Assembly (NCBI GenBank): GCA_036495715.1
Contig: DASXML010000051.1
Location: 38,745 to 70,744, forward strand
Source: Scandinavium sp.
GTDB lineage: Bacteria > Pseudomonadota > Gammaproteobacteria > Enterobacterales > Enterobacteriaceae
DNA length: 32,000 bases
Direction of reading: 5' to 3'
Shown here: piece by piece, positions 7,199 through 22,951 of the stretch
Layout: each line of letters opens with the position of its first letter
Position numbering within the stretch: position 1 is the stretch's first letter
Notes under the pieces: model-generated
Database searches by the model: none
The model's input: only the letters and a program-made list of their open reading frames with translations
What the model was told of the DNA's origin: nothing
Program-made: the position numbers and the translations under genes

Positions 7199-7338
7199 TA
7201 CAATCGGGCCTGATTTCGTTTGACGATGTCAAAACGGGTCGGGCCTCCTTTGATGACATCATGCGCGCCGCCGCAATCCTCCAGTATGACTCCGCAGTCT
7301 CCGCCGCTATATCAGAAGCCGAGAAACCAAAAAAATGA
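6698..7338 (+). CDS. Tail assembly chaperone, -1 frameshifted extension product (GT-like, about 213 aa)
   Basis: My hand translation shows the -1 frame open from 7078 to TGA 7336-7338. The sequence is KYWSGHQSQSESSERRQGIIERLAEGLDPAVRAEVTIWRVIQSGLISFDDVKTGRASFDDIMRAAAILQYDSAVSAAISEAEKPKK. Its stop overlaps the tape-measure ATG (ATGA at 7335-7338). Confidence 0.6.
7072..7078 (+). promoter_or_regulatory. Programmed -1 frameshift slippery heptamer A AAA AAA, within a 9-A run at 7072-7080
   Basis: The zero-frame reading is GGG TTA AAA AAA AAT. It fits the X XXY YYZ pattern and the -1 frame downstream is open for 86 codons. Confidence 0.6.
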
Positions 7339-9296
7339 CCGAACAAACCAAAGAGCTTGTCACAAAGGTAGACGTGCAGCCCGATCTTGCCGGGCTGTTA
7401 GCCTTTGAGGCTGAATTAGACCGCGCCATTGGTAAAGTTAACCAGCTTGACGCCGCGATAAAACGCACAAATGAACTGAAGCCAAAAGGGCGTTTTGCAC
7501 CGCCTGTGAACAATCCCAGCGCAACCGTCGCCGCCGCTGGTCTTGCCGCCGGGCTTGGCGCTAATCTCGTTAACCGTGGCGCGCTGGCACCGCTGGTACG
7601 TAAGGCGTCAGAGGATGTGGCAAAGAATGCCGCGAAAACCGCCGCAACGGGCGTCAATATGGCCATTGAGGGCATGCGCGGGCGCATTGGTGGCGGTGGT
7701 GGACTTCTTGGCATTGCAGGGCCGCGCAGTGCGGGTGGTGGCGGTGGCACACTGGCGACACGTCCGGGGCCGTTTGATGGCATGAATTTTTCCCGCAGTA
7801 ATTTTGATGGCACACCATTAGACGGGAAGAAAGCCGCCGCAGCCAAAGCGGCCAGAGCACCCGGCAGCGGCTTTAAAATGCCTGACATGATGGCGGGTGC
7901 GGCGTCGGCGTATGCGTTAAGCGCAGGGCTTGACGCAATAGCGCACAGCCTCGACCGCGTACAATCCGCAGAGGCACAATTAGCCAGGCTACCGCAAACC
8001 ATCGGCAGCAGCAAAGACGCCTTCATTGAGTTAACCAACGCTGCAACGCAGGTGCGCGGCGACGGTGACGCATTCATCAGCACATACACCAACATGGCCA
8101 CCGCAACGGAAAAGCTAGGGTTAAGCCAGGCGGAAACCATCAAAGCCACGCAAGGGCTTGTGAGCTCGTTACAGTTGGGTGGAGGCAGCAAAGAGGCGGT
8201 CACAAACGCGCTGTATCAAATGGGGCAGGCGTTTTCGTCTAACCGGTTCGGCGGCGATGAGTTCCGCTCATTCATGGAGGCCATCGGCACTATGGCACCA
8301 GAGGTGGCCAAAGCGTTTGGCACGGACGTTGCCGGGTTGCGTCAGATGTCGGAGCAGGGAAAGTTAACCGCAGAAACCATGACCAAAGCTTTTGAAACCA
8401 TGGCAGATAAAAACATGGATTTGCTTAAAAAACAGGGCTGGACGTGGGGGCAGGTCACAACGGTCATGGGCAATGATTGGGGTACCTTTATCGCCACGGC
8501 CACGGAAAATGGCGAATGGTCGCACCTGATGTCATGGATAGCCACCAACGTTACACCCGTTTTCAAAACAGCAGAGCAAGCCGTTGCGGGATTCTGGAAC
8601 ACGACAACGGATGAAAGCAAGGCCAGCATATTGATTGGTATTCTGGCATCCATAGGCGCAGCGTTTGCGGCGCTGGCAATTCCTGTTCTGGCGGCGACGT
8701 GGCCATTTCTGGCCGTTGGCGCGGCGGTGTTCCTGCTGTATGAACTTTTCCAGGAGTTTCAACACTGGATGGACGGAAGCGCGAAGACGATTTTTGACAA
8801 TTTGTTTGGATCGTTCGATGAGTTCGAAAAACGTTACCCGGCTATTGTGAAGGGGTTGAAAGCGCTGATTAATGCCACTGGTGGTGCGGCAAGTGCCGTG
8901 AATGACGCGTCAGGGGGAGCCATTACAAATGGCAGTGTTTTAGGTGACTTGAGTCGGCATCTACCTGTCATCGGCCCACTGATTAACAGTTGGAAGTCTT
9001 TAAAAGATGTCAATGATGTCTCTGGCGGTAAGTTAAATCCTTTGGATGGGCTTGAGGGGCTTTTCAGCCTCTTCGTTGGCGATGACAAGCCAGCGTCTGG
9101 CTTGAATGGGTTAACGCCTCCATCGGTGGCGAATGGCTCACAGACAACCATCTCTAACACCAATAGTGGGAACACAACAATACAGGTTGCAACGCCTGAA
9201 GATGCCGCGACCGTGGCAAATGCGCGCGACAAAACGTTTGTTAATCATATGGGTAATGACCTCGGGAATATGGCAGAGGGCGGCGGATACCTGTAG
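7335..9296 (+). CDS. Tail tape measure protein
   Basis: 653 aa, Ala/Gly-rich helical repeats, Gly runs (GGGGGLLGIAGPRSAGGGGG) and a hydrophobic segment (ILIGILASIGAAFAALAIPVLAATWPFLAVGAAVFLLY). It follows the chaperone frameshift site. Confidence 0.85.
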   Translation: MTEQTKELVTKVDVQPDLAGLLAFEAELDRAIGKVNQLDAAIKRTNELKPKGRFAPPVNNPSATVAAAGLAAGLGANLVNRGALAPLVRKASEDVAKNAAKTAATGVNMAIEGMRGRIGGGGGLLGIAGPRSAGGGGGTLATRPGPFDGMNFSRSNFDGTPLDGKKAAAAKAARAPGSGFKMPDMMAGAASAYALSAGLDAIAHSLDRVQSAEAQLARLPQTIGSSKDAFIELTNAATQVRGDGDAFISTYTNMATATEKLGLSQAETIKATQGLVSSLQLGGGSKEAVTNALYQMGQAFSSNRFGGDEFRSFMEAIGTMAPEVAKAFGTDVAGLRQMSEQGKLTAETMTKAFETMADKNMDLLKKQGWTWGQVTTVMGNDWGTFIATATENGEWSHLMSWIATNVTPVFKTAEQAVAGFWNTTTDESKASILIGILASIGAAFAALAIPVLAATWPFLAVGAAVFLLYELFQEFQHWMDGSAKTIFDNLFGSFDEFEKRYPAIVKGLKALINATGGAASAVNDASGGAITNGSVLGDLSRHLPVIGPLINSWKSLKDVNDVSGGKLNPLDGLEGLFSLFVGDDKPASGLNGLTPPSVANGSQTTISNTNSGNTTIQVATPEDAATVANARDKTFVNHMGNDLGNMAEGGGYL

Positions 9297-9337
9297 AATT
9301 GCGACGTTACTACATACACACGCAAGGAAAAAACAAG

Positions 9338-9454
9338 ATGGAATTGACCAGGTTACAAAAATATTTTCTGTGCCCTTTGGCAAGCGTCGCGTTGACGGCG
9401 GCTTTGTACCTTCAGATTGAATACTTATCCGGTTTGGTGAAATCGTTTTTGTAA
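9338..9454 (+). CDS. Possible 38-aa hydrophobic peptide (MELTRLQKYFLCPLASVALTAALYLQIEYLSGLVKSFL)
   Basis: Hand-found ORF below the track cutoff. AAGGA lies upstream, and the ORF sits in the AT-rich insert just before the membrane-protein gene. Confidence 0.3.
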   Translation: MELTRLQKYFLCPLASVALTAALYLQIEYLSGLVKSFL

Positions 9455-9466
9455 AGGATTAAAAAC

Positions 9467-9838
9467 ATGAGAATTTTAACGTTAGATGACATGATTACCC
9501 CAAAGATTTTGACCAGTCTTTATATTTTCACCACGCTAGTTGCGTTTGTTGCTTTGGTCTTCACATTGTCAGTGGGGCATTACACGGGTTCAATTATACT
9601 CGCTGTGGTCATTGTGTTTAATCGCGTTTTTTTTGAGTGCATCATTGTTGTTTTTAAAAATAATGAACATCTTAAAAATAGTGCTGAATATTTGCGATAC
9701 ATCGCAAACACCATGGCCAACAACTATGATGAAGAACATATTGCAGCAGCCCGGAAGGCCAAAGAGTCGCAGCAATTCGAAAATGACGCAGACTTTAGCA
9801 CTGACAGCAAAGAAGACACCCCACAAGACAAACAATAA
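9467..9838 (+). CDS. Small two-TM membrane protein (DUF4282-like by recollection); a moron within the tail module
   Basis: Visibly AT-rich relative to its neighbours. It has its own AAGGA RBS, two hydrophobic helices, an acidic tail and its own terminator. Confidence 0.7.
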   Translation: MRILTLDDMITPKILTSLYIFTTLVAFVALVFTLSVGHYTGSIILAVVIVFNRVFFECIIVVFKNNEHLKNSAEYLRYIANTMANNYDEEHIAAARKAKESQQFENDADFSTDSKEDTPQDKQ

Positions 9839-9860
9839 TAAAGATACAGCGCCCGGCATA

Positions 9861-9890
9861 AAATCCACCTTCAGCGGTGGATTTTTTATT
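9861..9890 (+). terminator. Rho-independent terminator of the moron
   Basis: Stem AAATCCACC (9861-9869) pairs with GGTGGATTT (9876-9884), with a 6-nt loop, followed by TTTTATTT. Confidence 0.75.
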
Positions 9891-9900
9891 TGGGGGCTTT

Positions 9901-10467
9901 ATGTCAGATATGGGCGGGTTAAACGCACCAGCGGGGCGCAGGGTTGTTATTGTGTCATCGTCGGGCGTTTCCGTGTCATTACGATTACGCAAGCGCGAAG
10001 CATATTCCGCAAAGCGGAACGTTTCGCAAGGCGCGCTTGAAACGGGTTATAAAATATCCGACGGAACTGTAAACGAACAACCCGGCATAGAATTAGAAGG
10101 CATCGTCACGGGCAGTGATGGTTATGCGCTCGCATTTGATCCTTCACGTATTAACGCCGAAGTGGCCAGCATCAAAAACGCCTTTAATCTCGATGAGCTT
10201 GTCTCTGTATACGCATCATTTATAGCGATGAGTGATGCAGTGCTGACAGAGTTCACCGCAGAGGCAACCCCGAAAGACAAAACCATCACCATAAAACTTG
10301 CCGCGAAAAAAATTAAGTTCGTGACCTTCCAGCGCACCCAAAACGAAGCGCCAGCCCCTAAATCAACAAAAACAAAAAATCCCGCCGGGCAGGGGAGGGC
10401 AGACACCGGCAAAAAATCAGCCACACCAAAAGACAAACCTAAAACGGATATTCTTTACTTTACATAA
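9901..10467 (+). CDS. Hypothetical post-tape-measure (distal tail?) protein with a Lys-rich C-terminus
   Basis: ATG at 9901 is preceded by GGGGG. The listed GTG at 9877 lies inside the terminator stem. Confidence 0.5.
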   Translation: MSDMGGLNAPAGRRVVIVSSSGVSVSLRLRKREAYSAKRNVSQGALETGYKISDGTVNEQPGIELEGIVTGSDGYALAFDPSRINAEVASIKNAFNLDELVSVYASFIAMSDAVLTEFTAEATPKDKTITIKLAAKKIKFVTFQRTQNEAPAPKSTKTKNPAGQGRADTGKKSATPKDKPKTDILYFT

Positions 10468-10479
10468 GGTTAAATAAAA

Positions 10480-10815
10480 GTGGATGAGCAATTTTACAGT
10501 TTGCCGCTGGTGGCCTCCATCCCTGACCAGTCAATGACCGTCAGTTTTGATGGCTCCTTCTTTTCGGTTCGGGTGTTCTTTTCGACCAGCACAAACTTGT
10601 GGTGGTTGGAATTGAGTAGCGTTGATATGGCTGTGACACTGTCACAAATCGCACTGCGACCAAATGTGATGCATGGGTTGTCTGGCAAGGTTCCGGGTTA
10701 TGCCGGTGCCGCGTCAGTCGGCATGATTAGCTTGCGAAGTGGTGGGGTTTACGGCTCGATTGATGCCTTTGCGGGTGATTTTGGGCTTTTCATGGCTGAT
10801 GCCGTGACAGTGTAA
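10480..10815 (+). CDS. Hypothetical phage protein (111 aa)
   Basis: GTG start, same operon. No function recognised. Confidence 0.45.
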   Translation: MDEQFYSLPLVASIPDQSMTVSFDGSFFSVRVFFSTSTNLWWLELSSVDMAVTLSQIALRPNVMHGLSGKVPGYAGAASVGMISLRSGGVYGSIDAFAGDFGLFMADAVTV

Positions 10816-10847
10816 CGTCGGGGCGCTGTTTTAGCTGGTGGTTAACG

Positions 10848-11192
10848 ATGAATAACACATTACAGGAGTTGATTGGTCAAGTGACTAAATGGATTGAGAT
10901 TTATTTCCCGGCGATTTGTGCCGGTATTATGGCCGCAGCAATCAATATTTTAATGGGTGTCAGAGCCAGTGAGCCGCCAAAGAGAAATGTAACAGGGGGC
11001 GCTATATGTGGGCTTATTGCGACAGGTTGCTACTCATTCGCAATTTATTTAGGTATGCCACCTGAAGCGGGCATTTTCTTTGGCGGGTTCCTCGGCTTTC
11101 TCGGCCCTGATGGCATCAAAGAGATTTTTGTCACTGCTGGCAACGTTATCAAAAAACGCAGGTCTGGAGGGTTAACAGATGCAAATAAGTAA
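10848..11192 (+). CDS. Holin (three predicted TM segments and a charged C-terminus)
   Basis: Hydrophobic segments IYFPAICAGIMAAAINILMGV, GGAICGLIATGCYSFAIYLG and GIFFGGFLGFLG, with the tail KKRRSGGLTDANK. It overlaps the endolysin start. Confidence 0.7.
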   Translation: MNNTLQELIGQVTKWIEIYFPAICAGIMAAAINILMGVRASEPPKRNVTGGAICGLIATGCYSFAIYLGMPPEAGIFFGGFLGFLGPDGIKEIFVTAGNVIKKRRSGGLTDANK

Positions 11193-11646
11193 CAACATGA
11201 AAGCGTATTTATCAATGCTTGGGTGGTCTGAAGGAACGACCACAATAAAAGGCAGTGATAATGGCTACAACGTTATCGTTGGCGGTGGTTTATTTACCTC
11301 ATATGCAGACCATCCGCATAAATCGGTAAAAATACCATCATTGGGGATTAGCTCGACAGCGGCTGGGCGTTATCAGTTACTTGCAAAATATTGGGATGGG
11401 AAGAACGGGTATAAATATAGCCTCAAGCTGTCGAATTATGGCCCCGAAAGTCAAGATGCTGTTGCCGTTCAACAAATTAAAGAGCAGGGCGCATACGCTG
11501 ATATTGAGAGTGGCAATATTAAAGCGGCAATTCAAAAGTGCTCGAATATATGGGCATCATTGCCCGGCGCTGGTTACGGACAGCATGAGCAAAAGATTGA
11601 TGATTTACTTGCGGTCTACCGTGAAAACGGTGGGATTGTCGCTTGA
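11179..11646 (+). CDS. R: Endolysin, lambda R-type lytic transglycosylase
   Basis: Collinear similarity to lambda R as I remember it. Shared blocks include LGWSEGT (catalytic Glu), GYNVIVGG, AAGRYQLL, SQDAVAVQQIKE and CSNIWASLPGAGYGQHE. Confidence 0.9.
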   Translation: MQISNNMKAYLSMLGWSEGTTTIKGSDNGYNVIVGGGLFTSYADHPHKSVKIPSLGISSTAAGRYQLLAKYWDGKNGYKYSLKLSNYGPESQDAVAVQQIKEQGAYADIESGNIKAAIQKCSNIWASLPGAGYGQHEQKIDDLLAVYRENGGIVA

Positions 11647-12173
11647 TGCGCACGCTATGGAAGCCGCTGACCGCTGGCGGCTTAATTCTGCTGGCTCTGT
11701 GCTGGTTTTCCCATGCGCGCTATGAATCTGGCTATCAGGCGGCGGATTCATCCTGGAAACTGAAGGACGAAAAGCGCCAGAAAGCAAACGCGCTGGCGCT
11801 GGCCAGCAAACAGGCCGACGAGCGAAGCAAGGAGAAAGAACGACGTGACGCCGCAGACAAAGCAGCAGCAGAAGCGGACACACAACTTGCTAAAGCGCGT
11901 GCTGATGCCGCTGATGCTGAGCGTACTGGTGACCAGTTGCGCGCAACAATATCAGCCATCCGCAAGCAGTTTGCAGCAAGTGAAACCGGCAGATTATCCG
12001 CAGTTGCCGCAGCAAGCTCGGCAAGAGCCAATACCGGCATTTTGCTTGCCAACGTGCTTGAAAGCGCTGACAAGCGAGCGGGAGAACTGGCGGAATACGC
12101 TGACAGGGCAAGAATAGCCGGTCAGACATGCGAGAAAATTTACAATCAAGTAACCAAAGGAAATCAACAATGA
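11646..12173 (+). CDS. Rz: i-spanin (Rz-like)
   Basis: ATG overlaps the endolysin TGA (TGATG). It has an N-terminal TM segment (LTAGGLILLALCWF) followed by a long charged coiled coil. Confidence 0.85.
   Translation: MRTLWKPLTAGGLILLALCWFSHARYESGYQAADSSWKLKDEKRQKANALALASKQADERSKEKERRDAADKAAAEADTQLAKARADAADAERTGDQLRATISAIRKQFAASETGRLSAVAAASSARANTGILLANVLESADKRAGELAEYADRARIAGQTCEKIYNQVTKGNQQ
11905..12117 (+). CDS. Rz1: o-spanin lipoprotein (Rz1-like), embedded in the +1 frame of Rz
   Basis: MPLMLSVLVTSC carries a lipobox (VTSC). The mature part is Pro/Gln-rich with Cys residues, and the ORF lies entirely inside Rz. Confidence 0.8.
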   Translation: MPLMLSVLVTSCAQQYQPSASSLQQVKPADYPQLPQQARQEPIPAFCLPTCLKALTSERENWRNTLTGQE

Positions 12174-12406
12174 GCGAAGCAAAACCACAGGACGGCAGCA
12201 CCGTAAAGGGTTATCGCAGCCTGACCGACAAAGACATTGCCAACATGAATCGACTTAAAGAAATCAGCCGCCAGTTTTTGGCCCAGCTTTCATTTTTAGA
12301 TAATGGAGAGCATGACGGGCGCTGGCTGGCGATTGCTAAAACTGAAATGCAGAAAGCCTGTATGTCTGCGTGCCGAGCAGTAGCGCAACCGGATGAAGAC
12401 TGCTGA
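12170..12406 (+). CDS. Small phage accessory protein, possibly an Acb2-family cyclic-oligonucleotide sponge (anti-CBASS)
   Basis: ATGA overlap with the Rz stop. The 78-aa protein contains KGYRSLTDKDIANMNRLKE and RWLAIAKTEMQKACMSACRAV, patterns I associate with Acb2/Vs.4-like proteins. Coding is likely, but the function is tentative. Confidence 0.45.
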   Translation: MSEAKPQDGSTVKGYRSLTDKDIANMNRLKEISRQFLAQLSFLDNGEHDGRWLAIAKTEMQKACMSACRAVAQPDEDC

Positions 12407-12432
12407 ATCTGGTGAAGCCCTTGTTGGATTTA

Positions 12433-12458
12433 GCCCGGAACTGACCGGGCATTTTTTT
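12433..12458 (+). terminator. Rho-independent terminator ending the lysis/Acb2-like transcription unit
   Basis: Stem GCCCGG (12433-12438) pairs with CCGGGC (12445-12450), with a 6-nt loop, then ATTTTTTT. Confidence 0.8.
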
Positions 12459-12473
12459 GTCTGTTGACTGGCG

Positions 12474-12491
12474 GGTAACATATAAGTTACC
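12474..12491. promoter_or_regulatory. Perfect palindrome GGTAAC-ATATAA-GTTACC, a candidate operator overlapping a possible promoter (TTGTCT 12457-12462, N18, TATAAG 12481-12486)
   Basis: Read directly from the sequence, about 35 nt upstream of the HTH gene start. Confidence 0.45.
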
Positions 12492-12523
12492 TTTATTATG
12501 TGAATGCACATCAAGGGGGCTTT

Positions 12524-12829
12524 ATGGCCAGCATTGAAACTGATGAAGCAACAATCAGTTACTTAAAGGAAGACCCGCAAGCAAGGCTTGCAATCATAAA
12601 TGAGGTATACCGGCTAATAAGCGATGGTGATGTCGATGTCGCCAAAACCACATTGCGCATGGTTATCAATATGACCTGTGGATTTCGAGCCATTTCTGAT
12701 GAAGTTGGCAGACATCCAAAATCCATCATGCGCATGTTGACCCCGGATGTAGATCCAGGCATCAAGGCGTTTATGTCAGTGGTCAATGCCACAAAGCGCC
12801 AGATAACGAGCGCCGCAAAGGAGGCATAA
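12524..12829 (+). CDS. HTH DNA-binding protein resembling 'addiction module antidote' (HigA-like) proteins
   Basis: ATG at 12524 with AAGGGGG upstream. The pattern YLKEDPQARLAIINEV...DVDVAKTTLRMVINM...ISDEVGRHPKSIMRMLTP fits the antidote family as I recall it. Confidence 0.55.
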   Translation: MASIETDEATISYLKEDPQARLAIINEVYRLISDGDVDVAKTTLRMVINMTCGFRAISDEVGRHPKSIMRMLTPDVDPGIKAFMSVVNATKRQITSAAKEA

Positions 12830-12831
12830 AA

Positions 12832-13266
12832 ATGCAGAGCAATTTACATGAAACCGATTTTTACGGGTGGACGCAGCAACAGGCCGAACTGTTAAGAAAA
12901 GGGAAACTCACTGAGGTGGATGTGATGAATTTAATCGAGGAAATCGAGGACATGGGCGGCAGCGAAAAAAGGGAACTTGAATCACGTCTTGGCGTGTTGT
13001 TTATGCATTTGCTCAAGTGGCGTTATCAGCCCACACACCGTGGCCATTCATGGCGTCTGACCATTGCAGAGCAGCGCAGCAAGATTGCGCGCCGCTTGAG
13101 GAAATCGCCGTCACTCAAGTCTTCACTGGAAGAAATCGCCGCTGACGCTTACAGCGATTCACGTTATGGCGCATCGCGTGAAACCGGTCAGGTGCTGGAA
13201 GTGTTCCCGGATGATTGTCCGTGGACGCTCGCACAGGTGCTGGATGTTGACTATTTGCCAGACTAA
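12832..13266 (+). CDS. DUF29 family protein
   Basis: The N-terminus LHETDFYGWTQQQAELLRKGKLTEVDVMNLIEEIEDMG...ELESRL..LFMHLLKWRYQP is the characteristic DUF29 signature. The start lies 2 nt after the HTH gene stop. Confidence 0.8.
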   Translation: MQSNLHETDFYGWTQQQAELLRKGKLTEVDVMNLIEEIEDMGGSEKRELESRLGVLFMHLLKWRYQPTHRGHSWRLTIAEQRSKIARRLRKSPSLKSSLEEIAADAYSDSRYGASRETGQVLEVFPDDCPWTLAQVLDVDYLPD

Positions 13267-13286
13267 ACAAAGCAGCATCACACCAG

Positions 13287-13311
13287 ACCCGGCCATCGTG
13301 GCGGGTTTTTT
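13287..13311 (+). terminator. Rho-independent terminator after the DUF29 gene
   Basis: ACCCG(G)CCA pairs with TGGCGGGT, giving a stem with one bulge and a 3-nt loop, followed by TTTTTTATT. Confidence 0.7.
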
Positions 13312-13482
13312 ATTGCCCGCGCTCACAGAATCACGCGCACAGCGCGGGTGGGGCGGGGTCAATCGCTCAAACGTGCTGTTTGTAGTTGAAATAAACAGGC
13401 TTCAGAAGTAGACTAAGTGTAAGAGTCTTGCAACAAGGGCGTAAAGTCGCTTGTCCTGCCTGTGTTCGTTCTAATCTCTGCT

Positions 13483-13510
13483 ATTTAACATAATATACAT
13501 TATGCGCACC
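13483..13510 (-). other. dif: dif, the XerC/XerD chromosome dimer resolution site
   Basis: ATTTAACATAATATACATTATGCGCACC is the exact reverse complement of E. coli dif GGTGCGCATAA-TGTATA-TTATGTTAAAT (28/28). Confidence 0.9.
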
Positions 13511-13567
13511 AAAAAAAGATACGAAGAATTGTCCGCTTTGTGCGGGTAAACCCCTAAGGAGAAGCAC

Positions 13568-14032
13568 GTGAAAAAGACCATTGCCATTCTTATAGTTGGA
13601 TTGTTGTTTTCTTCATTAAACGCCAGTGCAAGCACAGAACTAGTTTTTCAGTGCATGACAAAAAGCAAAAAAACAATAAAAATAGAACGTGAAAATGAAA
13701 CTTTAAAATACACATATGGCAACGAGAAAAAAAATGACTTAACGTTGGAGACTCCGCTTTTCAGTGAGAAAATTCCAACTCTTTTTTCATCAGATGTTCA
13801 ACTTGGAAACAAATCCGGACCTTATATTTTCAACACTGTTACATTTCATAATGGAGAATATGCATATTCAGTCTCCGCATTAAGTGACATCAATGTTCCA
13901 TCAGACGAAACCTTTACAGGGGTTTATGTCAGCGGAGAGCGCATAAAAACCACTAAAATCAAATGTATAGAGGGCACCATACAAGATAACTTTGAGTCCC
14001 TCTTTGATTTTAATCGCTCACGCAACAAATAA
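13568..14032 (+). CDS. Secreted (Sec signal peptide) 154-aa protein of unknown function; a possible periplasmic immunity partner
   Basis: GTG start with AAGGAG 6 nt upstream. The signal peptide is MKKTIAILIVGLLFSSLNASA/STE. The gene is strongly AT-rich, encodes two Cys residues and is convergent with the 789-aa gene. Confidence 0.7.
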   Translation: MKKTIAILIVGLLFSSLNASASTELVFQCMTKSKKTIKIERENETLKYTYGNEKKNDLTLETPLFSEKIPTLFSSDVQLGNKSGPYIFNTVTFHNGEYAYSVSALSDINVPSDETFTGVYVSGERIKTTKIKCIEGTIQDNFESLFDFNRSRNK

Positions 14033-14059
14033 AAAATGGGCTTACTATTAGGTAAGCCC
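14028..14059 (-). terminator. Rho-independent terminator of the 789-aa gene; the hairpin is shared with the convergent gene
   Basis: Stem GGGCTTAC (14038-14045) pairs with GTAAGCCC (14052-14059). On the minus strand it is followed by ATTTTTTATTT. Confidence 0.75.
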
Positions 14060-14072
14060 TTACATCAAATCA

Positions 14073-16442
14073 CTAAATGCCACTGAATATTTTTTCGTCG
14101 AAAAACGCAATCAGATTTTTGTATCGAGCATTTTTTGTATTAGTGCCCGGGTTTACTATATTCGTCACATTATGTGATGCATTCTCTGTTATACCATCAT
14201 CAGCTTTTTTGTAAGCTTCATAAAAATCCCAAAAGAACAATGCTGACCGCACAACTTGTTTTGTTGATGCAGTAATTAACTCTGGATGCTCTTCATAATC
14301 CACTGGGTCGTTCCAGACCTTATTAGCATATCGAGTAAAGGCTCTATAATTATATCTTCCAGTGAGCTGCTTCATTCCCCTGCCCTTATAGCGCCATCCA
14401 TCCCCTGGTTCTGTATTACCATTACGCCCGCCATAAGCTTTATTGGCAATCGCTTCCTGATTTGCTCTGTGTGCAGCTGTTCGCCCGTCAATTTCCTGTT
14501 CATCAGGATGTCTTCGGTAGTAACTGAAGAGACCAGGGAGCGCTGTTGCCGCATAATTTAAACTCTCATCTATTGTGAACGTAGCCCCCGTTTCCTGATA
14601 AACCTGAGCCATAAAGTGATACAGCCGAACCTCAGTATTAAGATGACAGCGTTCCAGATTATCATTTAACTCATCCGCAACCTGCTGGAGAACCTCGTCG
14701 CTGACATTGCGACTATTCGTCCATATCTTACGCAACATTGGTAGCGTGATTTTGCCGCTTCCGGGCTTAAGCATCTCCAGAAACTCAAGCGGATGAAAAT
14801 GCCATACTGACCGCTGACTGGCGAACGGCGGCACCTTATCCATCCAGCGCGTTGCATCCAGAAATCCCCCGTTGGCCATCTTCACAACCGGGCTTTCATC
14901 CCTGACCTTAAATACCGACGACCAGCGTGTATCATCGCGGGTACTGTGCCAGTCGCTGTCGTGTTTCACTATCAGGCGTCGCGCATATTCCGGGATATTC
15001 ATCTGGTTCGTATGCAGTGCACCAAACAAATACTGGTCCTGTGATTTATCGGGATACGGGTTCGGCGGTCTTCTGTTTTCGGCGTTATGGATCAGGCTGT
15101 CATAAAACATTTTTGCCTGCGCGAACTGTGGTCCCTTTTCACCGTCAAAGTGCGAGCTGATGCTTTTCAGGGCATCAATGAGCCAGCGTTCATCCAGCGT
15201 GCGCGTAAAATCGGTTGTGTGTTCAGCCTCAATACAGTGAAAGTTTAGCCCTGCTAAATCGTGCTGGCTGAGCTGCTCCACGTCGTCCTGGTGCATCCAC
15301 GTATGCGGGCGGATCTGAAAGTATGTGACCCCGGTTTTATCCGTAAACGGGTACGTGGCATCGCGCGGAATAATTTTTCCGGCATCGGCACGGGTAATGG
15401 CGCTCATCTGCTCAAAGCTACTTTCCTCGTCCTCCCCGTTTCTCAGGTACATCGGGCGTTTCAGCTTCAGCTTAATAAACTGTTTGCCCGTTTTGATGCC
15501 CTTTACGTTTGCCACAAAATCAGGCACATGTTCATCGAGGCTCAGCAGCTCGATATGGGCTTTATAGTCCGTGGTGATAATCTGCGGATGGTTATCTTCG
15601 TCAGCCAGATCCTGAGCGCCCAGGAACCCGACCGCATCCCCTGCTTTCACCGTCACTTTCAGCGGCGCTGGCGGCACCACCACATCATCAAACACGCCGT
15701 GATTCAGGGCGCTGTGCATCCAGTCAGGCAGACACACGTAGCATTCGCCGTCAGGCTCCAGATATTCCGGGCGGATCGAGACCCAGAACAGCTCCCCGGC
15801 GGGTTTACCGTCCTGAAGACGCTGCACCAGGGCGAACGGCTCCGGCCGTTGTTCCAGTAAAAACGATTTTTGTTGCAGTACGGCAAGCGTGTCACCCTGC
15901 GTCAGCGTTCTGGCGTGGCCGTGTTTGTTTGCCAGCACGTCCGGCGCGATTTCACGGCTGTCATCGTGGCGGGAATGTTTACGCATCCGCACGCCGTGGC
16001 CTTTCTGCGTAACCCGGTAAAGCGGGCGTTTCGGAAATTCTGACAATGGCGCGATGTGCATGTACAGCTGGTACAGCGTCAGCCAGGTGGCTTCATCCTG
16101 TTCGTCGGGCTTATACACTGATTTAACCAGCACAAAGGTGCCGGACTGGCGCAGGGGGCGTTCCTGATAACACTCAATAGCCGCATAATCGCGGTTAATC
16201 CGCCATGCCACCACCTCGCCGTCCATCATGAACTGGAGCGGCACCGATTTTTCCGGCGTATCCGGATCCAGCACCGAGGCCGGGGACGATGACGTCCCGA
16301 TGTGGATCCCACCGTGCCAGTAACGATTTACGCCAAGTAACCACCACCCGTGGGCGTTTTTGCGGATGTCGGTCAGCAGCTCGTCATAGTTCTTATAGTC
16401 CCGTCCGTCGGCTTTCCGTACCGGATAACGTATGTTCATCAT
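14073..16442 (-). CDS. Large two-domain cell-wall hydrolase-like protein with an N-terminal LytM/M23-like region, a central unknown region and a C-terminal GH19 (chitinase/lysozyme-like) domain; no signal peptide
   Basis: GH19 block: LYHFMAQVYQETGATFTIDES (two Glu 9 residues apart), YGGRNGNTEPGDGWRYKGRGMKQLTGRYNY. M23-like pieces: WHGGIHIG, LYQLYMHI and VKAGDAVGFLG...YKAHIEL, where the HxH motif is degenerate. AAGGA RBS upstream and its own terminator. Confidence 0.75.
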   Translation of the reverse strand: MMNIRYPVRKADGRDYKNYDELLTDIRKNAHGWWLLGVNRYWHGGIHIGTSSSPASVLDPDTPEKSVPLQFMMDGEVVAWRINRDYAAIECYQERPLRQSGTFVLVKSVYKPDEQDEATWLTLYQLYMHIAPLSEFPKRPLYRVTQKGHGVRMRKHSRHDDSREIAPDVLANKHGHARTLTQGDTLAVLQQKSFLLEQRPEPFALVQRLQDGKPAGELFWVSIRPEYLEPDGECYVCLPDWMHSALNHGVFDDVVVPPAPLKVTVKAGDAVGFLGAQDLADEDNHPQIITTDYKAHIELLSLDEHVPDFVANVKGIKTGKQFIKLKLKRPMYLRNGEDEESSFEQMSAITRADAGKIIPRDATYPFTDKTGVTYFQIRPHTWMHQDDVEQLSQHDLAGLNFHCIEAEHTTDFTRTLDERWLIDALKSISSHFDGEKGPQFAQAKMFYDSLIHNAENRRPPNPYPDKSQDQYLFGALHTNQMNIPEYARRLIVKHDSDWHSTRDDTRWSSVFKVRDESPVVKMANGGFLDATRWMDKVPPFASQRSVWHFHPLEFLEMLKPGSGKITLPMLRKIWTNSRNVSDEVLQQVADELNDNLERCHLNTEVRLYHFMAQVYQETGATFTIDESLNYAATALPGLFSYYRRHPDEQEIDGRTAAHRANQEAIANKAYGGRNGNTEPGDGWRYKGRGMKQLTGRYNYRAFTRYANKVWNDPVDYEEHPELITASTKQVVRSALFFWDFYEAYKKADDGITENASHNVTNIVNPGTNTKNARYKNLIAFFDEKIFSGI

Positions 16443-16755
16443 CTTTCCTTAAGTGAAATCCCTCAAAACCTTAATCATCGCAGGGAGTTAAAAAAAGGGA
16501 AGCAGAAATTAACGTAACTGTATTGCGATATATGACGAAAAAGACGGCTTAGCAGGGGGCGCGAAGCGCTGGGGATTGTGCTTTATGGTATCTCGCCCTG
16601 GTATCGGCGGGCTGACGACGGGCGAATTATGACGCGTTGTCATGCCGCCTTCCATGCCTGGCGGCATCAACACATCACCGGTGCTCTCTTCCATGCTGCT
16701 GACACGAGAAGGCATCACACTAAGCCTGCCTCCTCGCACAGCTGCGGGGGCATCC

Positions 16756-17973
16756 TTAGTGTGACACCTTCCTGGCCTGAAGAATGACGACAATATCCGT
16801 TTTGTATTTTTCCGTACTTTTTGTCGCGAACCACGACGGCATAAAGGTTAATCCCGTATCGGTATCAGTCGTCTTGTTTTCCGCCAGACCGCCGATAAGA
16901 ATGATATCGCCATCCTTCACAGATACCGCCGTCTGTATGCTGCGCTTTATCAGCGTTGGCGAATTGTTCACGCCCGTGTTTGTCTTCGCAAAGTTCGACA
17001 GTTCCTGACTGATGTTCAAATCAATAACGTCGGAACGCACCCACGGCTGCACGTTAAAAATCACGCCGCTGGAACGGTATTCAACGGACTGCACGGCCTT
17101 GTCGCCTTCATACGAGACGTTCCCCAGCACGGGAACATCTTCCCCGACGGAAAACGACGCCTGCGTGCCGGATCGCGCCCTGAGCGATGGCGAGCTGACA
17201 ACATGAAAGCGGCTGTCGGTTCTGAACAGCTCATACAGTGCGGTGAGGCTCCCCGAACTGAACTTGATGAAGTTCTGATAGCCCGCTTCACCCGTGCCGC
17301 CAATCTGGATCGAAAGCTTTTCATTAAGTAACTTTGCCGCCAGTGCCAGACCGGATCCATTTCGTTCATTGGTCTGCACCTCAAAGACATATCCGCCCAC
17401 GTAAACCTCAGAGGTTGGCGTATCCACTGACGGTAACAACTGCTCTATTTTGCGGATATCCGCCCGCGAGCCGTAAAACACCAGAACATCGCCGTCCCCG
17501 TTGATATTACCGGTTCTGGCAACGGCGGGCTGAAGCGTTGCCCCCTGCACCGATTCCGCACCGGAAACGGATCCGAAATCCCCGCCGACGATCCCGCGCA
17601 GAAGGCCGGAAAGATACGCGACGCTGCGGTGTTTTGGCGCATAGACAAAGCTGAATTTCGGCTCAATGACCTGTTTTGGCGTCACCGGGAAAATATAGTC
17701 AACGCCCCCTTTCTGGCTTATCGCGATGTTCATATTCTGGAGATAACGGGCAAAAAACTGTTTTGCGTCGGTCTGCTCCGTGATGTGGAACGACACGATA
17801 CGCGGATCTGCCGCCAGTTCCGGAGCCAGCATAAAGGGCTGTTTCAGCACATCAGCGTAAAAAAAGGTGATGGCCTTCGGGAGCTGCATCGCGTCAAGAC
17901 GAAAATCCACGCTAACCGCCATCGCGGACAGGCTGAACAGACTCAGCAGGCAGGACAAAAGTAACTTTTTCAT
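16756..17973 (-). CDS. Inovirus pIV-type secretin
   Basis: Signal peptide MKKLLLSCLLSLFSLSAMA. The C-terminal secretin-like region includes GEDVPVLGNV and DGDIILIGGL. ATGA overlap with the Zot/pI-like gene. Confidence 0.85.
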   Translation of the reverse strand: MKKLLLSCLLSLFSLSAMAVSVDFRLDAMQLPKAITFFYADVLKQPFMLAPELAADPRIVSFHITEQTDAKQFFARYLQNMNIAISQKGGVDYIFPVTPKQVIEPKFSFVYAPKHRSVAYLSGLLRGIVGGDFGSVSGAESVQGATLQPAVARTGNINGDGDVLVFYGSRADIRKIEQLLPSVDTPTSEVYVGGYVFEVQTNERNGSGLALAAKLLNEKLSIQIGGTGEAGYQNFIKFSSGSLTALYELFRTDSRFHVVSSPSLRARSGTQASFSVGEDVPVLGNVSYEGDKAVQSVEYRSSGVIFNVQPWVRSDVIDLNISQELSNFAKTNTGVNNSPTLIKRSIQTAVSVKDGDIILIGGLAENKTTDTDTGLTFMPSWFATKSTEKYKTDIVVILQARKVSH

Positions 17974-19007
17974 GATTTATCACCGCTGAAATAAGAGACG
18001 ATTTCACCGTCAACGATGCCATTCAGCATCATGCCGTCATTTGAAAATCCCGCACGGGATACCATGCGGTTAAGCCCGGATGCATCAGTGAGCACCACAT
18101 AGCTTTTACCTTCCCGGCTTAGCGTCCCGTTGACGCGCCAGCGCTTCGACAGTGACGGTTTCGCGGGTTCCGGTTGGACATTCTGCATTCCCTGAGACAC
18201 GACAGCGCCGGGTGGCAAAGTCCCCTGGCTGTCCGCCAAAGTTACTTTTTTATCGGACCCGGCTGAATGAAAAAACGACGTGATGACATAAGCGGATCCG
18301 CACATACACATAATGATGATGGTGAACAGCACCCAGAGTTTCTTTTGCTTAAAAATATTCTGGCGGTCATCCACGGTCTGCTCATTGCCCTGCCCGCCAT
18401 AATGCGAGTGATACAGCCCGTAAATTTCATCCTCAAATTTATTCTGGTAACTGGTAATTTTCGACGACTTAAATAATTTAGCCCCGGCAAACACGTCCAC
18501 CCTGTAGCGTTTTTTCAGCCCCAGCGAAACGTGTTTCTGCATTCTGTACGTGGTCTCAATTCGCGTTTTGATAAAACGGGCAATGGAATCCAGACTCTGG
18601 TTAATCACCACAATATCGCAGGTGGTCGCCGTTTCAGCATCGGACATATGGCGGTGTTCAGCGAAAAAGGCGCGGTGCTCTTTACACAGGCTTTTATCCG
18701 CATCCCAGAACCGCCAGGCTTCATCAATACAGATTAAATCCCCGTGCTGACAAAACGTCTGCTCAGCATCCTTGTACGGTAAAAAGTTTTTATCCGTCAC
18801 CTGATCGTTGCTGACGTGAATGATTTCCCCGAGCGTATTCAGGTCTTTGCTATTGCGACGGGCATAATCAGAAAAGTTACTTTCGTTCACGCCGTCGATA
18901 TTGGTCACAATACGTCTGCCCGACAGATACGCCGGAAGAATAACCGACTTGACGACCTCATACGATTTTCCGTGACCGGGAATACCAATATATGCAGAAA
19001 TTGCCAT
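17970..19007 (-). CDS. Zot / pI-type assembly ATPase
   Basis: N-terminal Walker A in MAISAYIGIPGHGKSYEVV, a central TM segment (LWVLFTIIIMCMCGSAYVITSFF), and the expected position between pVI and pIV. Confidence 0.9.
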   Translation of the reverse strand: MAISAYIGIPGHGKSYEVVKSVILPAYLSGRRIVTNIDGVNESNFSDYARRNSKDLNTLGEIIHVSNDQVTDKNFLPYKDAEQTFCQHGDLICIDEAWRFWDADKSLCKEHRAFFAEHRHMSDAETATTCDIVVINQSLDSIARFIKTRIETTYRMQKHVSLGLKKRYRVDVFAGAKLFKSSKITSYQNKFEDEIYGLYHSHYGGQGNEQTVDDRQNIFKQKKLWVLFTIIIMCMCGSAYVITSFFHSAGSDKKVTLADSQGTLPPGAVVSQGMQNVQPEPAKPSLSKRWRVNGTLSREGKSYVVLTDASGLNRMVSRAGFSNDGMMLNGIVDGEIVSYFSGDKS

Positions 19008-19009
19008 GA

Positions 19010-19297
19010 TTAACCTATTACCGGAAGACGACGAATAATAAACCGGGTAAACATTGCGCTGAATACCAGGGGGATCCCGATATCGGCTTTAAAGTAATAC
19101 AGGAAAAACCACATTCCGTCCGGCAGCAGATTAAACAGCCCGGCAATATCGCCAGACTGCGGCAATCTGTCCGCCACCACGGAGAAAAGTTCCTTTACGG
19201 CAAAAAAGAGCGTGGTGAATAACACAAACTTTAATACCGCCCCTCTTAACAGATACGCCAGAACGGCATTAAACGCAGAAACAAGAATGCCAAACAT
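19010..19297 (-). CDS. pVI / Ace-like minor coat protein
   Basis: 95 aa and very hydrophobic. The C-terminus MFTRFIIRRLPVIG resembles the Ace C-terminus as I recall it. Correct position. Confidence 0.65.
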   Translation of the reverse strand: MFGILVSAFNAVLAYLLRGAVLKFVLFTTLFFAVKELFSVVADRLPQSGDIAGLFNLLPDGMWFFLYYFKADIGIPLVFSAMFTRFIIRRLPVIG

Positions 19298-19304
19298 ATG
19301 TCAC

Positions 19305-20648
19305 CTATGCACTGAGCACCACACGAAGCGCCACAATTGCCCAAATAAGCGTTGAAACGACTTTTGCAATATCCCGTAATTTTTCAAGTAACAGGCACTG
19401 TGAATCAATGGTGATTTCCGTTCCAAATATCTGGAAACTGCCCGTCGGACATACTGAGGCATGGCCTTCCAGCTTCATATTATCGATCCACGACAGCGGT
19501 GAAATAACCGGAGCCATTATCTGTCTGGCCGTGGGGACATCATCAATATCGGGCGCTTTAATATCCGGGTTCTCACCTAAATCAATTGAGGGCTTATCAG
19601 ATGTCGCTACTTTATTGGGAATATTCACCGTCCCGTCTGCTTTAAACGCCGAATCAAACAGGGATGATTTACTGACGGACGTATTATCTTTCGCCAGAAG
19701 CTGTTTAATTTCATTTGCCGTAATCGCATCCGTATCGGCGAACGGCACACCGTCATAGCCCGTCTGTGTAGCCGCATCATGCATCAAATCATTCATGGCC
19801 TGCGCCAGCACATCCGCCTTCACCTCTGTCTGGCCTGCAACCTGCTGTAATGCTTCTGCCGTCGTCAGCACAGACGCGCCCAGAGACGGCAGCGTTTCCC
19901 CGTCCTTTAACGTGCGCTGATAATTGTAAATCGTCACCTGCGTTGCCCCGGTCTGGCCGTTGGGAGAATACCAGCGCTCGGACGTACTGTTCACGCTTGC
20001 CCAGTTCTTAAAGACAGGCTCATCGGTCAGGGAATAAATGTTATACGTACTGCCCGTGGTTGTTTTCGTAAACGCCGGAAGATACGGCATCCCGCGCACA
20101 TCGCGCCCGGCGGTGTCCTTCATGTAAACCAGTTTACCATCCCAGAACTTCAGTTCGCCGATACCCGCCGACTCAGGCGAACGATAAACCGGAACCGGCG
20201 AAAAAGGGACTTTTGTATCCGTGCCGTCAACGGTGACGGTATAACTCCCGTCGGAACTGGCCTCACCGTTCACCATTTTCACGGCATCATCAAACACGTC
20301 GCCAAACAGCTGCGTCACCGTGTACGCGGTTCCTGCCGTATTCAGTCCTGCCCAGGTGGCCTTACCTGCTTTTGACAGAAAAGAAGACTTCGGAACCAGC
20401 AGTTCCCGCGCCAGTGCGGCTTTATTGACGTTCTGTATGGTTGCGGCCGCAACCTGTCGGGTAAACGCAATATCCGCCGCCTGCTCTGCCGCATAAATGG
20501 CCGAACGTCGGGCAATCACTGAACCGAATAATTCACCCAGTCCGATTAACACCGGATTGGCATAAGCAAGTCGCGGAAATGAACCGTAAGCGATCATAAC
20601 ACAGGTGAAATACACAATTAGCCGTTTAAGCCCTGAATTACCGCCCAT
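19305..20648 (-). CDS. pIII-like receptor-binding/adsorption protein
   Basis: ATG at 20648 gives the signal peptide MGGNSGLKRLIVYFTCVMIAYGSFPRLAYA/NP, and there is a C-terminal membrane anchor (VVSTLIWAIVALRVVLSA). The listed GTG at 20738 would read through the gVIII terminator. Confidence 0.7.
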   Translation of the reverse strand: MGGNSGLKRLIVYFTCVMIAYGSFPRLAYANPVLIGLGELFGSVIARRSAIYAAEQAADIAFTRQVAAATIQNVNKAALARELLVPKSSFLSKAGKATWAGLNTAGTAYTVTQLFGDVFDDAVKMVNGEASSDGSYTVTVDGTDTKVPFSPVPVYRSPESAGIGELKFWDGKLVYMKDTAGRDVRGMPYLPAFTKTTTGSTYNIYSLTDEPVFKNWASVNSTSERWYSPNGQTGATQVTIYNYQRTLKDGETLPSLGASVLTTAEALQQVAGQTEVKADVLAQAMNDLMHDAATQTGYDGVPFADTDAITANEIKQLLAKDNTSVSKSSLFDSAFKADGTVNIPNKVATSDKPSIDLGENPDIKAPDIDDVPTARQIMAPVISPLSWIDNMKLEGHASVCPTGSFQIFGTEITIDSQCLLLEKLRDIAKVVSTLIWAIVALRVVLSA

Positions 20649-20699
20649 GCACACAATAACCCCCAGAGAAATACAACGAGATCGACCATTTCCGGCACC

Positions 20700-20733
20700 A
20701 TAAATAAAGGGAGGATAATGATTACCCTCCCTT
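20700..20733 (-). terminator. Rho-independent terminator directly after the major coat gene
   Basis: The minus strand reads AAGGGAGG-GTAATCATTAT-CCTCCCTT followed by TATTTAT. The stems are at 20707-20714 and 20726-20733. Confidence 0.7.
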
Positions 20734-20752
20734 TTCACTTTTATTGTTGTTA

Positions 20753-20986
20753 TTACGCCGAACGCACCATACGCAGTACGTGTTTCACGCCAGCAAAGAG
20801 CGCATACAGCCCGGCGACCGCTGCCGCAATACCCAGAATCGCCGTACCCACATCACCAAAATCAATTGCGCCTGTCAGTGCGGTGAGATCGAATTTACTG
20901 GTGCCTTCCGCCGCCATGACGGACGGTGCAGTAACAGCAGAGACAGCGGCCAGTGCAACCAAAGTTACTTTTTTCTTGATGGACAT
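20753..20986 (-). CDS. Major coat protein (pVIII / Cep-like)
   Basis: Signal peptide ending VMA/AEG. The mature ~52 aa has an acidic N-terminus, a hydrophobic core (VGTAILGIAAAVAGLYALFAGV) and a basic C-terminus (KHVLRMVRSA). Confidence 0.85.
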   Translation of the reverse strand: MSIKKKVTLVALAAVSAVTAPSVMAAEGTSKFDLTALTGAIDFGDVGTAILGIAAAVAGLYALFAGVKHVLRMVRSA

Positions 20987-20995
20987 ATTTTCACC

Positions 20996-21193
20996 TTATA
21001 CATTTTTGATAAAACGTAATACCGTACCCACTCCCAGAGAGAATAAATAAAGCGATATTACCGAGGTAAACGCAACGCCCCAGACCTTACCTAAATAAGC
21101 GTAATCAATACTGTCTGGCGCATTGCCTGTTAACGTTAAAGAAATTTGCTGGCAGACCTGCGCAGCGTCACACACCGTTCCGGTGATATCCAT
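20996..21193 (-). CDS. Minor coat protein (pVII/pIX position)
   Basis: 65 aa with a single C-terminal TM segment (VWGVAFTSVISLYLFSLGVGTVL), located between the ssDNA-binding and major coat genes. Confidence 0.5.
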   Translation of the reverse strand: MDITGTVCDAAQVCQQISLTLTGNAPDSIDYAYLGKVWGVAFTSVISLYLFSLGVGTVLRFIKNV

Positions 21194-21208
21194 TATTTCA
21201 CTGTGTGA

Positions 21209-21496
21209 TTATTTGGTGTTTTCAGAAACCGGAACCAGCTTAATGTTTTTTACTTTTAATGCGCCGAAATCGCCCACATCAAAAGACGCATTATCCAGCG
21301 TATAAAAACCTGCCGGATAAGGTGCGGCATCTTTATCCAGACTGATAACAAACTGCTTCGGGTAAACACCGCCGTTATAAATATAGGCAATCTGCTCGCG
21401 GAAATTTAATACCTCCCCGGTTTGTTTGGATGTTACCTGTTTAGTGCGGACTTTACCATCGACATCGTTAATTTCAATCTTGACCACATTCACCAT
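21209..21496 (-). CDS. Gene V-type ssDNA-binding protein
   Basis: Collinear with M13 gVp as I recall it. YPKQFVISLDKDAAPYPAGFYTLDNASFDVGDFGALKVKNIKLVP compares with YPVLVKITLDEGQPAYAPGLYTVHLSSFKVGQFGSLMIDRLRLVP. Confidence 0.85.
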   Translation of the reverse strand: MVNVVKIEINDVDGKVRTKQVTSKQTGEVLNFREQIAYIYNGGVYPKQFVISLDKDAAPYPAGFYTLDNASFDVGDFGALKVKNIKLVPVSENTK

Positions 21497-21512
21497 GATT
21501 ATTTCCTTTCAT

Positions 21513-22827: not shown

Positions 22828-22924
22828 ATGCCCTCAATTGCAAGATGAAAGACCTGACAAAAGCCGACCACATCAAAAATAACACATGAGTTCATTAGCT
22901 TTTTCGATTACAAACATACATTAC

Positions 22925-22940
22925 TGAACATGTGAGTTCA
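22925..22940. promoter_or_regulatory. Inverted repeat TGAAC-ATGTGA-GTTCA; a candidate operator in the divergent control region
   Basis: Read directly from the sequence. Related GTTCA half-sites occur at 22885-22895 (CATGAGTTCAT) and 22959-22966 (ATGTTCAT). Confidence 0.4.
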
Positions 22941-22951
22941 AGAGGCCTTGA

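Follow-up and report, generated by a model that had tools for sequence, protein, structure and literature searches.

The cargo genes

We analyzed a stretch of 32,000 nucleotides from a Scandinavium species (contig DASXML010000051.1 of assembly GCA_036495715.1), referred to here as the window. It contains a filamentous phage (inovirus) prophage of 10.5 kb (13496-24033, core genes on the minus strand) that carries a cassette of two genes, one for a putative effector of a type VI secretion system (T6SS) and one for its predicted immunity protein. The effector gene (14073-16442, minus strand) is a real open reading frame (ORF) of 789 amino acids (aa), and a protein identical to its product is deposited as HEY2452895.1, from a Scandinavium sp. 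metagenome-assembled genome. The gene lies 313 bp downstream of the Secretin (pIV) gene on the same strand, and a Shine-Dalgarno sequence, AAGGAAA, precedes its ATG. A GC-rich hairpin (14038-14059) was identified between this gene and its convergent neighbor, with a T-run on the effector strand just past the effector stop codon. The hairpin is likely a terminator shared by the effector gene and the neighboring 154-aa gene. An earlier reading by a model that saw only the letters (the sequence-only reading) had described a large gene directly downstream of the secretin gene with its own ribosome-binding site and terminator, and these features are present. Its comparison of the position with that of ctxAB also holds, as the cassette is located between the last morphogenesis gene and the attP of an inovirus that integrates at dif.

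Within the intergenic region that separates the pIV and effector genes (16443-16755, minus strand), the mobile cassette common to non-phage loci starts at about position 16511. The GC content steps down from 0.551 in the part of the effector gene that encodes the N-terminal WHIX domain to 0.43 in the part that encodes the C-terminal GH19 domain and 0.353 in the immunity gene, and this fits a mosaic origin of the cassette. Searches of Pfam, NCBIfam and PADLOC gave no match for the full 789-aa or 154-aa protein.

The C-terminal GH19 domain

Residues 561-789 of the effector (14073-14762, minus strand) form a GH19 peptidoglycan glycoside hydrolase toxin domain. The domain has FMAQVYQETGATFTIDES at residue 610, with E617 and E626 spaced nine residues apart. 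Residues 561-779 match the PHROG endolysin family phrog_181 (E 3e-41). A phmmer comparison with 4ok7, the GH19 endolysin of Salmonella phage SPN1S, gave an E value of 1e-17 and placed E617 and E626 opposite the two glutamates of that enzyme. An AlphaFold2 model of the whole effector (predicted local distance difference test, pLDDT, 86.3) was compared with the Protein Data Bank (PDB) using Foldseek; the matches were only to GH19 endolysins (4ok7 with E 9e-10, TMt 0.70) and to the C-domain of the T6SS effector TseP (8xcl). The agreement of the 4ok7 alignment, the Foldseek result and the phrog_181 match confirms the assignment of this region to the GH19 peptidoglycan hydrolases, with the two catalytic Glu residues in place, as had been proposed from the Glu pair. 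We infer that the domain is muralytic. The Pfam model Glyco_hydro_19 matches 15 of 46 family members, and the window effector is not among them. The fold and the catalytic Glu pair are shared with GH19 endolysins (4ok7) and the TseP C-domain (8xcl). Unlike these, the GH19 domain of the window is fused to a 560-aa secretion domain, is paired with an immunity gene, and occurs outside any holin/endolysin lysis cassette.

The N-terminal WHIX domain

The first 560 residues (14763-16442, minus strand) correspond to WHIX, a domain for loading onto and secretion by the T6SS. WHIX is a bipartite domain named for its WHxxxH motif; in Aeromonas it suffices for secretion by the T6SS (Fridman et al., PLoS Biol 2025, PMC12135965). 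It is fused C-terminally (in subclass II also N-terminally) to peptidoglycan-targeting toxins, and neighboring genes whose products have signal peptides provide immunity (PMC12135965). Examples include V. alginolyticus WP_005373349.1 and Aeromonas jandaei Awe1; the "chitinase-like" or GH19 type is the commonest toxin class, and more than 98% of WHIX-bearing genomes have a T6SS (PMC12135965).

The motif is present in the effector as W42-H43-G-G-I-H47. Among 46 homologues with identities down to 22%, H43, G44, G45 and H47 are invariant and W42 is at least 90% conserved. We searched 5.8 billion proteins with the effector scaffold. The scaffold of about 560 aa is shared at 88-97% identity by proteins from Enterobacter, E. 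coli, Salmonella arizonae, Lelliottia, Buttiauxella and Scandinavium, and the C-terminus that follows it is a GH19, an N-acetylmuramidase (PF11860) or a pesticin-type lysozyme (PF16754) domain, depending on the protein. A full HMMER scan gave 472 cluster representatives in which the conserved scaffold has swapped C-termini, and many of these have an extra N-terminal extension of about 170 aa, either M23 or NlpC/P60, in front of the scaffold. Because the swapped C-termini and the M23 and NlpC/P60 extensions are the published subclass I and II architectures, we identify the N-terminal 560 aa as WHIX.

The protein WP_243043306.1, encoded on an E. coli plasmid (locus L001), has 94% aa identity to the effector over residues 1-559. 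It is listed in supplementary files 8 (C-terminal-extension) and 28 (WHIX tree) of the WHIX paper, in which proteins were assigned by RPS-BLAST to a position-specific scoring matrix (WP_005373349.1 aa 1-477; E<=1e-6, coverage of at least 70%) to give a dataset of 12,071 WHIX loci, so the window protein is assigned indirectly, through this relative. The accessions of Lelliottia and E. ludwigii GH19 proteins that were tried had no match in the parts of the supplement checked, an absence that is uninformative. Judged from its sequence, the effector appears to be a subclass-I WHIX T6SS effector. The approximately 250 central residues that the sequence-only reading did not recognize make up the second half of WHIX.

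A model of residues 1-560 has a pLDDT of 91.3 and a predicted template modeling score of 0.90. Foldseek found no PDB match for it at E<=0.001 and nothing significant in BFVD. Sequence searches of the PDB with residues 1-560 or with the family profile identified no relative outside the GH19 part.

The N-terminus had earlier been read as LytM/M23-like. The strings quoted for this are present (WHGGIH at residue 42, AHIEL at residue 295), but the zinc motifs of Peptidase M23/LytM, HxxxD and HxH, are absent, and the effector has HxxxH and AHIE. The Pfam model Peptidase_M23 (PF01551) never matches the WHIX region in the 46 family members; its matches in relatives fall solely in separate toxin domains. 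Alignment of the family profile to an M23 mini-alignment with hhalign gave a probability of 2%, with only the VKAGDxVG...HxE hairpin aligned, and the 50 top Foldseek matches of the 1-560 model included no M23 entry. The M23 assignment was therefore rejected.

Seven His and Glu residues distributed over both WHIX halves are invariant in the 46 homologues. These are H43, H47, H296, E298 and H494, together with the residues at 548 and 550 within W547-H-F-H-P551 (window positions 14793-16316, from alignments with identities down to 22%). The pattern suggests a metal or ligand site. EF-hand Pfam models match the linker part of WHIX in 25 of the 46 family members (P0127, P0133, P0140, P0147, P0159, P0205 and P0206, for example), at positions of about 430-490, or about 684-710 in N-terminally extended proteins; the window protein has no match. 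The PDB name of the TseP C-domain is likewise "EF-hand domain-containing protein". Some subclass-I WHIX proteins (P0139, P0147 and P0149) have tandem C-terminal toxins, Peptidase_M23 at residues of about 590-700 followed by Phage_lysozyme at about 760-900. This differs from the published "double-blade" layout, in which one toxin is placed on each side of WHIX.

The predicted immunity protein

The second cargo gene (13568-14032, plus strand) is convergent with the effector gene and encodes a predicted periplasmic immunity protein of 154 aa. The protein starts with MKKTIAILIVGLLFSSLNASA, a classical Sec signal peptide, contains cysteines at positions 29 and 133, and has no Pfam match. Its maximum Kyte-Doolittle hydropathy is 3.33, compared with 0.43 for the N-terminus of the effector, which has no hydrophobic segment. 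Thus, both the absence of a Sec signal in the effector and the description of the neighbor as convergent, AT-rich and secreted, with two cysteines, were correctly read from the letters.

The family of the 154-aa protein is small, with 14 clusters only, all from Enterobacterales, and its members adjoin GH19-type WHIX effectors only. Where the immunity protein is 86-99% identical (loci L003 and L007), the GH19 domain is 91-99% identical; where it is 28-33% identical (L008, L011 and L018), the GH19 domain is 68-74% identical. Shimwellia blattae has a 49%-identical immunity homologue that is convergent with a WHIX-GH19 gene (44% identical overall), and the GH19 part of that effector is far better conserved than the WHIX part. 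The 154-aa protein therefore co-varies with the GH19 domain and not with the WHIX scaffold. Other toxin types have other partners. Muramidase alleles are followed by an overlapping gene of 147 or 148 aa, and the pesticin allele has an overlapping same-strand gene of 118 aa with a weak match to the LprI lysozyme inhibitor. The 154-aa protein probably confers protection. The target is probably the bacterial wall, because the dedicated gene for periplasmic immunity varies together with the toxin domain.

The inovirus prophage

Next to the cassette we identified genes for the pIV secretin (16756-17973; Pfam Secretin, E 4e-25; PHROG phrog_1012, E 2e-122) and the pI/Zot ATPase (17970-19007; Pfam Zot, E 3e-24; PHROG phrog_197, E 3e-72). 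These are followed by genes for a pVI-like DUF2523 protein (19010-19297), a pIII-like protein (19305-20738), the Coat_B major coat protein (20753-20986), a small ORF (20996-21193), the single-stranded DNA-binding protein pV (21209-21496), the Rep_trans pII initiator (21513-22679) and an ORF of 64 aa (22633-22827), all on the minus strand. Three small divergent ORFs of 60, 88 and 116 aa (23010-23928, plus strand) have no Pfam family and presumably constitute a regulatory or lysogeny module.

The ORFs of the prophage include no integrase gene, and from this we infer integration by the host XerCD recombinases. The left end, attL, is an exact 28-bp dif site, GGTGCGCATAATGTATATTATGTTAAAT (13483-13510, minus strand), with 0 mismatches to the E. 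coli-type dif and 0 sites expected by chance. A 17-bp crossover core (13496-13512) is repeated with 1 mismatch at 24017-24033. The right end, attR, is an attP-type site of 33 bp with 1 mismatch (23999-24031, minus strand) that consists of a XerC arm GGTACGCATAA, a spacer TGTAGCACGCG and a XerD arm TTATGTTGAAT. The arms are canonical, whereas the spacer is 11 nt long compared with 6 nt in dif. After integration, the exact dif is on the cargo side and the site with the 11-nt spacer on the regulatory side. The 33-bp site was also found in the phage contigs L002 (7986-8018) and L008, with 2 mismatches in contig L006 and with 1 mismatch in the remnant L009.

Phage contigs with joined ends were recovered from three samples other than the source of the window. 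Contig L002 (SRR11833493, 10,551 bp) is a circular permutation of 13496-24033 at 100% identity. Because its ends overlap by 30 bp, the circular unit is 10,521 bp and includes both cargo genes. Contig L006 is circular, and L008, from a JGI metagenome, is circularly permuted across the same attP junction. The closest relative without an effector gene is a 6.9-kb inovirus (L034), with 85% identity in pIV and 71% in pI; homology to it stops 50 bp past pIV, at 16706. Neither INPHARED nor the complete E. coli genomes contain a near match to the backbone, and the best pI match in INPHARED is about 43% identical.

Cassette exchange and other genomic contexts

Contig L006 is approximately 97% identical to the window from Rep to position 14781 (effector residue about 554) and then unrelated until attP. 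It carries a pesticin-type toxin and a different immunity gene. Because the identity breaks at 14781, toxin and immunity gene are swapped as one unit at the junction of WHIX and toxin.

The cassette also occurs without phage genes. It was identified on 64 plasmids (PLSDB records), 43 of which are predicted to be conjugative, and it is flanked by insertion sequences in S. arizonae. Phage-less cassettes are also located beside dif in chromosomes of E. ludwigii, Klebsiella sp., S. enterica, Enterobacter sp. and Scandinavium sp., with a 28-bp dif, exact or nearly so, 1-5 kb downstream of the cassette (at 13827 in L003, 13484 in L010, 15144 in L013, 14425 in L019, 11046 in L025, 11321 in L027 and 12647 in L028). 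In E. ludwigii, cassettes are present on either side of dif. The dif region thus looks like a hotspot for T6SS effector and immunity genes. Two loci, L009 (Enterobacter adelaidei chromosome, 9719-13237) and L014 (Citrobacter sp., 9782-9893), retain 50-112 nt of the pIV 3' end before the effector gene. Downstream in L009 are a 33-bp attP-type site and 100 bp of phage end, with no other phage gene left. From these remains, both look like decayed prophages that kept only the cargo.

The Enterobacter dif hotspot (L028, 10493-12067; L027, 10297-10740) contains a gene for an 812-aa WHIX effector with two smaller genes behind it, the first of 249 aa and the second of 147 aa. The second has the size of the muramidase-allele immunity gene found at the same place in another strain, and may be an orphan immunity gene from an earlier cassette.

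A phage of a different type also carries a WHIX pair. A 774-aa WHIX effector gene (scaffold 61% identical) with an overlapping 147-aa ORF was found inside a P2-like prophage (L029, 9995-12749, and L030; IMG/VR UViG_2724679380_000004 and UViG_2706794597_000005). The pair is flanked by the portal gene (8630-9661) on one side and by replication gene A (14980-17250) on the other, at the classic moron hotspot of P2.

Proposed function and alternatives

We propose that the phage-borne WHIX-GH19 effector and its immunity partner arm a T6SS-positive lysogen and protect it, and assign this explanation a probability of roughly 75%. If the lysogen has a compatible T6SS, the effector, which stays in the cytoplasm, would be loaded via WHIX onto the spike, probably at the C-terminal tail of VgrG, and fired into the periplasm of neighboring cells. 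There the GH19 domain would cut the glycan strands of peptidoglycan and degrade the wall, while the Sec-exported 154-aa protein would shield lysogens and their kin in the periplasm. A host that carries the phage would thus kill non-lysogens while being safe from attack by its siblings. An antibacterial effector with a periplasmic immunity protein, perhaps exported by a T6SS, was the first of three roles considered in the sequence-only reading, and it gains support from the WHIX domain, the joint swapping and the co-variation. Export through the phage secretin, also raised there, is not supported, as the effector has no signal peptide with which to reach the periplasm.

Several points weigh against the proposed function. 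There is no T6SS gene in the 32-kb window. Neighboring vgrG, PAAR or hcp genes, which the sequence-only reading had advised looking for, were found at none of about 25 loci of the close clade (Pfam-annotated neighbors of five loci and ten large flanking ORFs elsewhere, within 8-10 kb). In a promoter scan upstream of the effector gene, no site stood out, and sites were no more numerous than in shuffled sequence. The joined phage ends in the contigs could stem from tandem prophages and not from replicative forms. Similarity to the tested Vibrio and Aeromonas WHIX proteins is known only through the membership list of the WHIX paper, and the enterobacterial clade borne on mobile elements is known from sequence. 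For this orphan, mobile clade, and for export in the Scandinavium host, dependence on the T6SS would follow from domain homology.

It is unlikely, in our view, that the cassette is a silent passenger in a host without a compatible VgrG or T6SS, in which only the immunity gene would be useful, as a defense against armed neighbors, or nothing would function. The effector is always an orphan in the loci inspected and fragmented copies occur in other genomes (L019, L021-L025), as might be expected of such a passenger. However, an independent sample contains the full-length ORF at 100% identity, and the catalytic residues and WHIX invariants are intact.

We consider it rather improbable that the effector is a bacteriocin of the colicin or pesticin type, released from the cell and imported via an outer-membrane receptor and Ton/Tol, with the 154-aa protein acting like Pim. 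Colicin M and pesticin have a convergent periplasmic immunity gene, a layout that resembles the arrangement of the effector and 154-aa genes. The sister variants with a pesticin-type lysozyme domain fit this possibility, as does the occurrence of the genes as orphans on conjugative plasmids (among the 64 PLSDB records), phages and IS-flanked islands with no secretion-system genes nearby. Yet the N-terminus is folded from residue 1 (pLDDT 84-93 over the first 40 aa) and has no disordered translocation domain. No LexA box (CTGT-N8-ACAG) was identified anywhere in the window, and the cassette contains no lysis gene. Moreover, distant WHIX paralogues, with about 39% identity in the same scaffold, are encoded directly after vgrG in Enterobacter T6SS clusters, and WHIX is sufficient for T6SS secretion (PMC12135965).

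A role in serving the phage, by opening peptidoglycan locally so that the pIV secretin can be inserted or virions extruded, was the second role in the sequence-only reading and is very improbable. Trans-envelope machines often have dedicated muralytic enzymes, and the effector gene does come immediately after pIV on the same strand. However, the effector lacks a signal peptide, related inoviruses such as the 6.9-kb relative lack the gene, and both the toxin domain and the immunity gene differ between near-identical phages. The cassette is also common without any phage, and a housekeeping lysin would need no dedicated inhibitor. The third role, a chitinase or host-directed conversion factor like a phage-borne exotoxin, recalls the history of GH19 as a chitinase family and the annotation of homologues as "predicted chitinase" in some sources, but has very little to recommend it given that the closest solved relatives are phage GH19 endolysins and TseP, that the periplasmic immunity gene co-varying with the GH19 domain points to a bacterial wall target, and that there is no export signal.

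The T6SS explanation could be extended, tentatively, to the inovirus lineage as a dedicated vehicle for polymorphic T6SS effector-immunity cassettes with an "infect-or-die" drive; we regard this extension as possible but doubtful. Lysogens would kill uninfected kin by means of the T6SS, and infection would be the sole route to immunity. Repeated integration and decay would have built the effector and immunity hotspots at dif in Enterobacter, Salmonella, Klebsiella and Scandinavium.

Relation to known systems

The window pair shares with published WHIX effectors the N-terminal WHxxxH motif, a polymorphic C-terminal peptidoglycan toxin and a neighboring immunity protein with a signal peptide. 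It differs in being an orphan, with no vgrG nearby, and in being borne by a filamentous phage. Mobile elements and phages are not discussed in the WHIX paper, where "phage" occurs only in two reference titles and "mobile" does not occur (PMC12135965). No phage-borne WHIX effector was reported in the literature we searched, and there was no WHIX match in BFVD or in INPHARED, where only the C-terminus was matched.

Integrative mobile elements exploiting Xer (IMEX) of the CTXphi type and Vibrio CTX-I inoviruses are likewise integrase-less and located at dif (Commun Biol 2025, PMC12715192). The Vibrio CTX-I phages also resemble the phage of the window and its relatives in having accessory cargo on the attP side of the last morphogenesis gene, in being about 3 kb larger with cargo than without it, and in leaving degraded relics in which the cargo is kept (PMC12715192). 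The cargo regions at the attP end of Vibrio dif inoviruses include a "T6SS" category (PMC12715192). In contrast to the Vibrio CTX phages, the phage of the window has an enterobacterial host, its own pIV secretin, and an attP that is a single site with an 11-nt spacer. Compared with known phages, backbone proteins reach no more than 71-85% identity to the nearest IMG/VR contig (pI 71%, pIV 85%). No homologue of XafT was identified in the phage, although no search aimed at XafT was made.

T6SS toxin and immunity genes are also reported on Inoviridae and P2-like phiRSY1 prophages of Ralstonia (Aoun et al., mBio 2024, PMC11481896). As described there, the Ralstonia cargo consists of auxiliary ("aux") T6SS toxin clusters, compared with the bare effector-immunity pair of the window, and the effector classes and host order are different. 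Pesticin and Pim of Yersinia pestis form a similarly modular system, in which the lysozyme-like C-terminal domain of the toxin works in the periplasm and the immunity protein is periplasmic, and the sister alleles carry the Pfam domain Pesticin. The delivery module here is WHIX, however, and not a TonB-box and FyuA-binding domain, and there is no homology outside the toxin domain.

WHIX effectors, cargo of dif inoviruses and T6SS toxins on inoviruses are thus already known, and the pair described here is a clear new example and not a new system. The most useful additions are the link to the dif hotspot and the mapped toxin swap. Under the proposed function, a wall hydrolase on a non-lytic phage is explained as a weapon for the T6SS of the host, and not by a role in lysis or assembly. 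To the few bioinformatic reports so far that place T6SS toxins on filamentous phages, the window adds an enterobacterial example for which the evidence is unusually direct (circular and permuted contigs, an exact dif junction and a mapped swap point). It also connects the dif region with Xer-exploiting phages and with the T6SS arsenals of Enterobacteriaceae. With 10.5 kb and two cargo genes, the phage is also a small, tractable system for asking whether phage-borne effectors plug into resident T6SS spikes and select for phage carriage.

Genes flanking the prophage

A tailed, myovirus-type prophage (1-13411, plus strand) directly abuts the dif site, so that this chromosome terminus site is flanked by two prophages of different kinds. 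The myovirus-type prophage encodes a head protease, major capsid protein, tail sheath and tape measure protein, as well as an endolysin-like protein (9877-10467) and an Rz-like spanin (11643-12173). Just outside the right end of the inovirus prophage, a gene for a 270-aa protein (24079-24891, plus strand) was identified, with homeodomain-like helix-turn-helix domains typical of the N-termini of insertion sequence transposases. Beyond it are chromosomal genes for a short-chain dehydrogenase/reductase, a LysR regulator and several zinc alcohol dehydrogenases, one of which (27636-28657) looks like a split gene.

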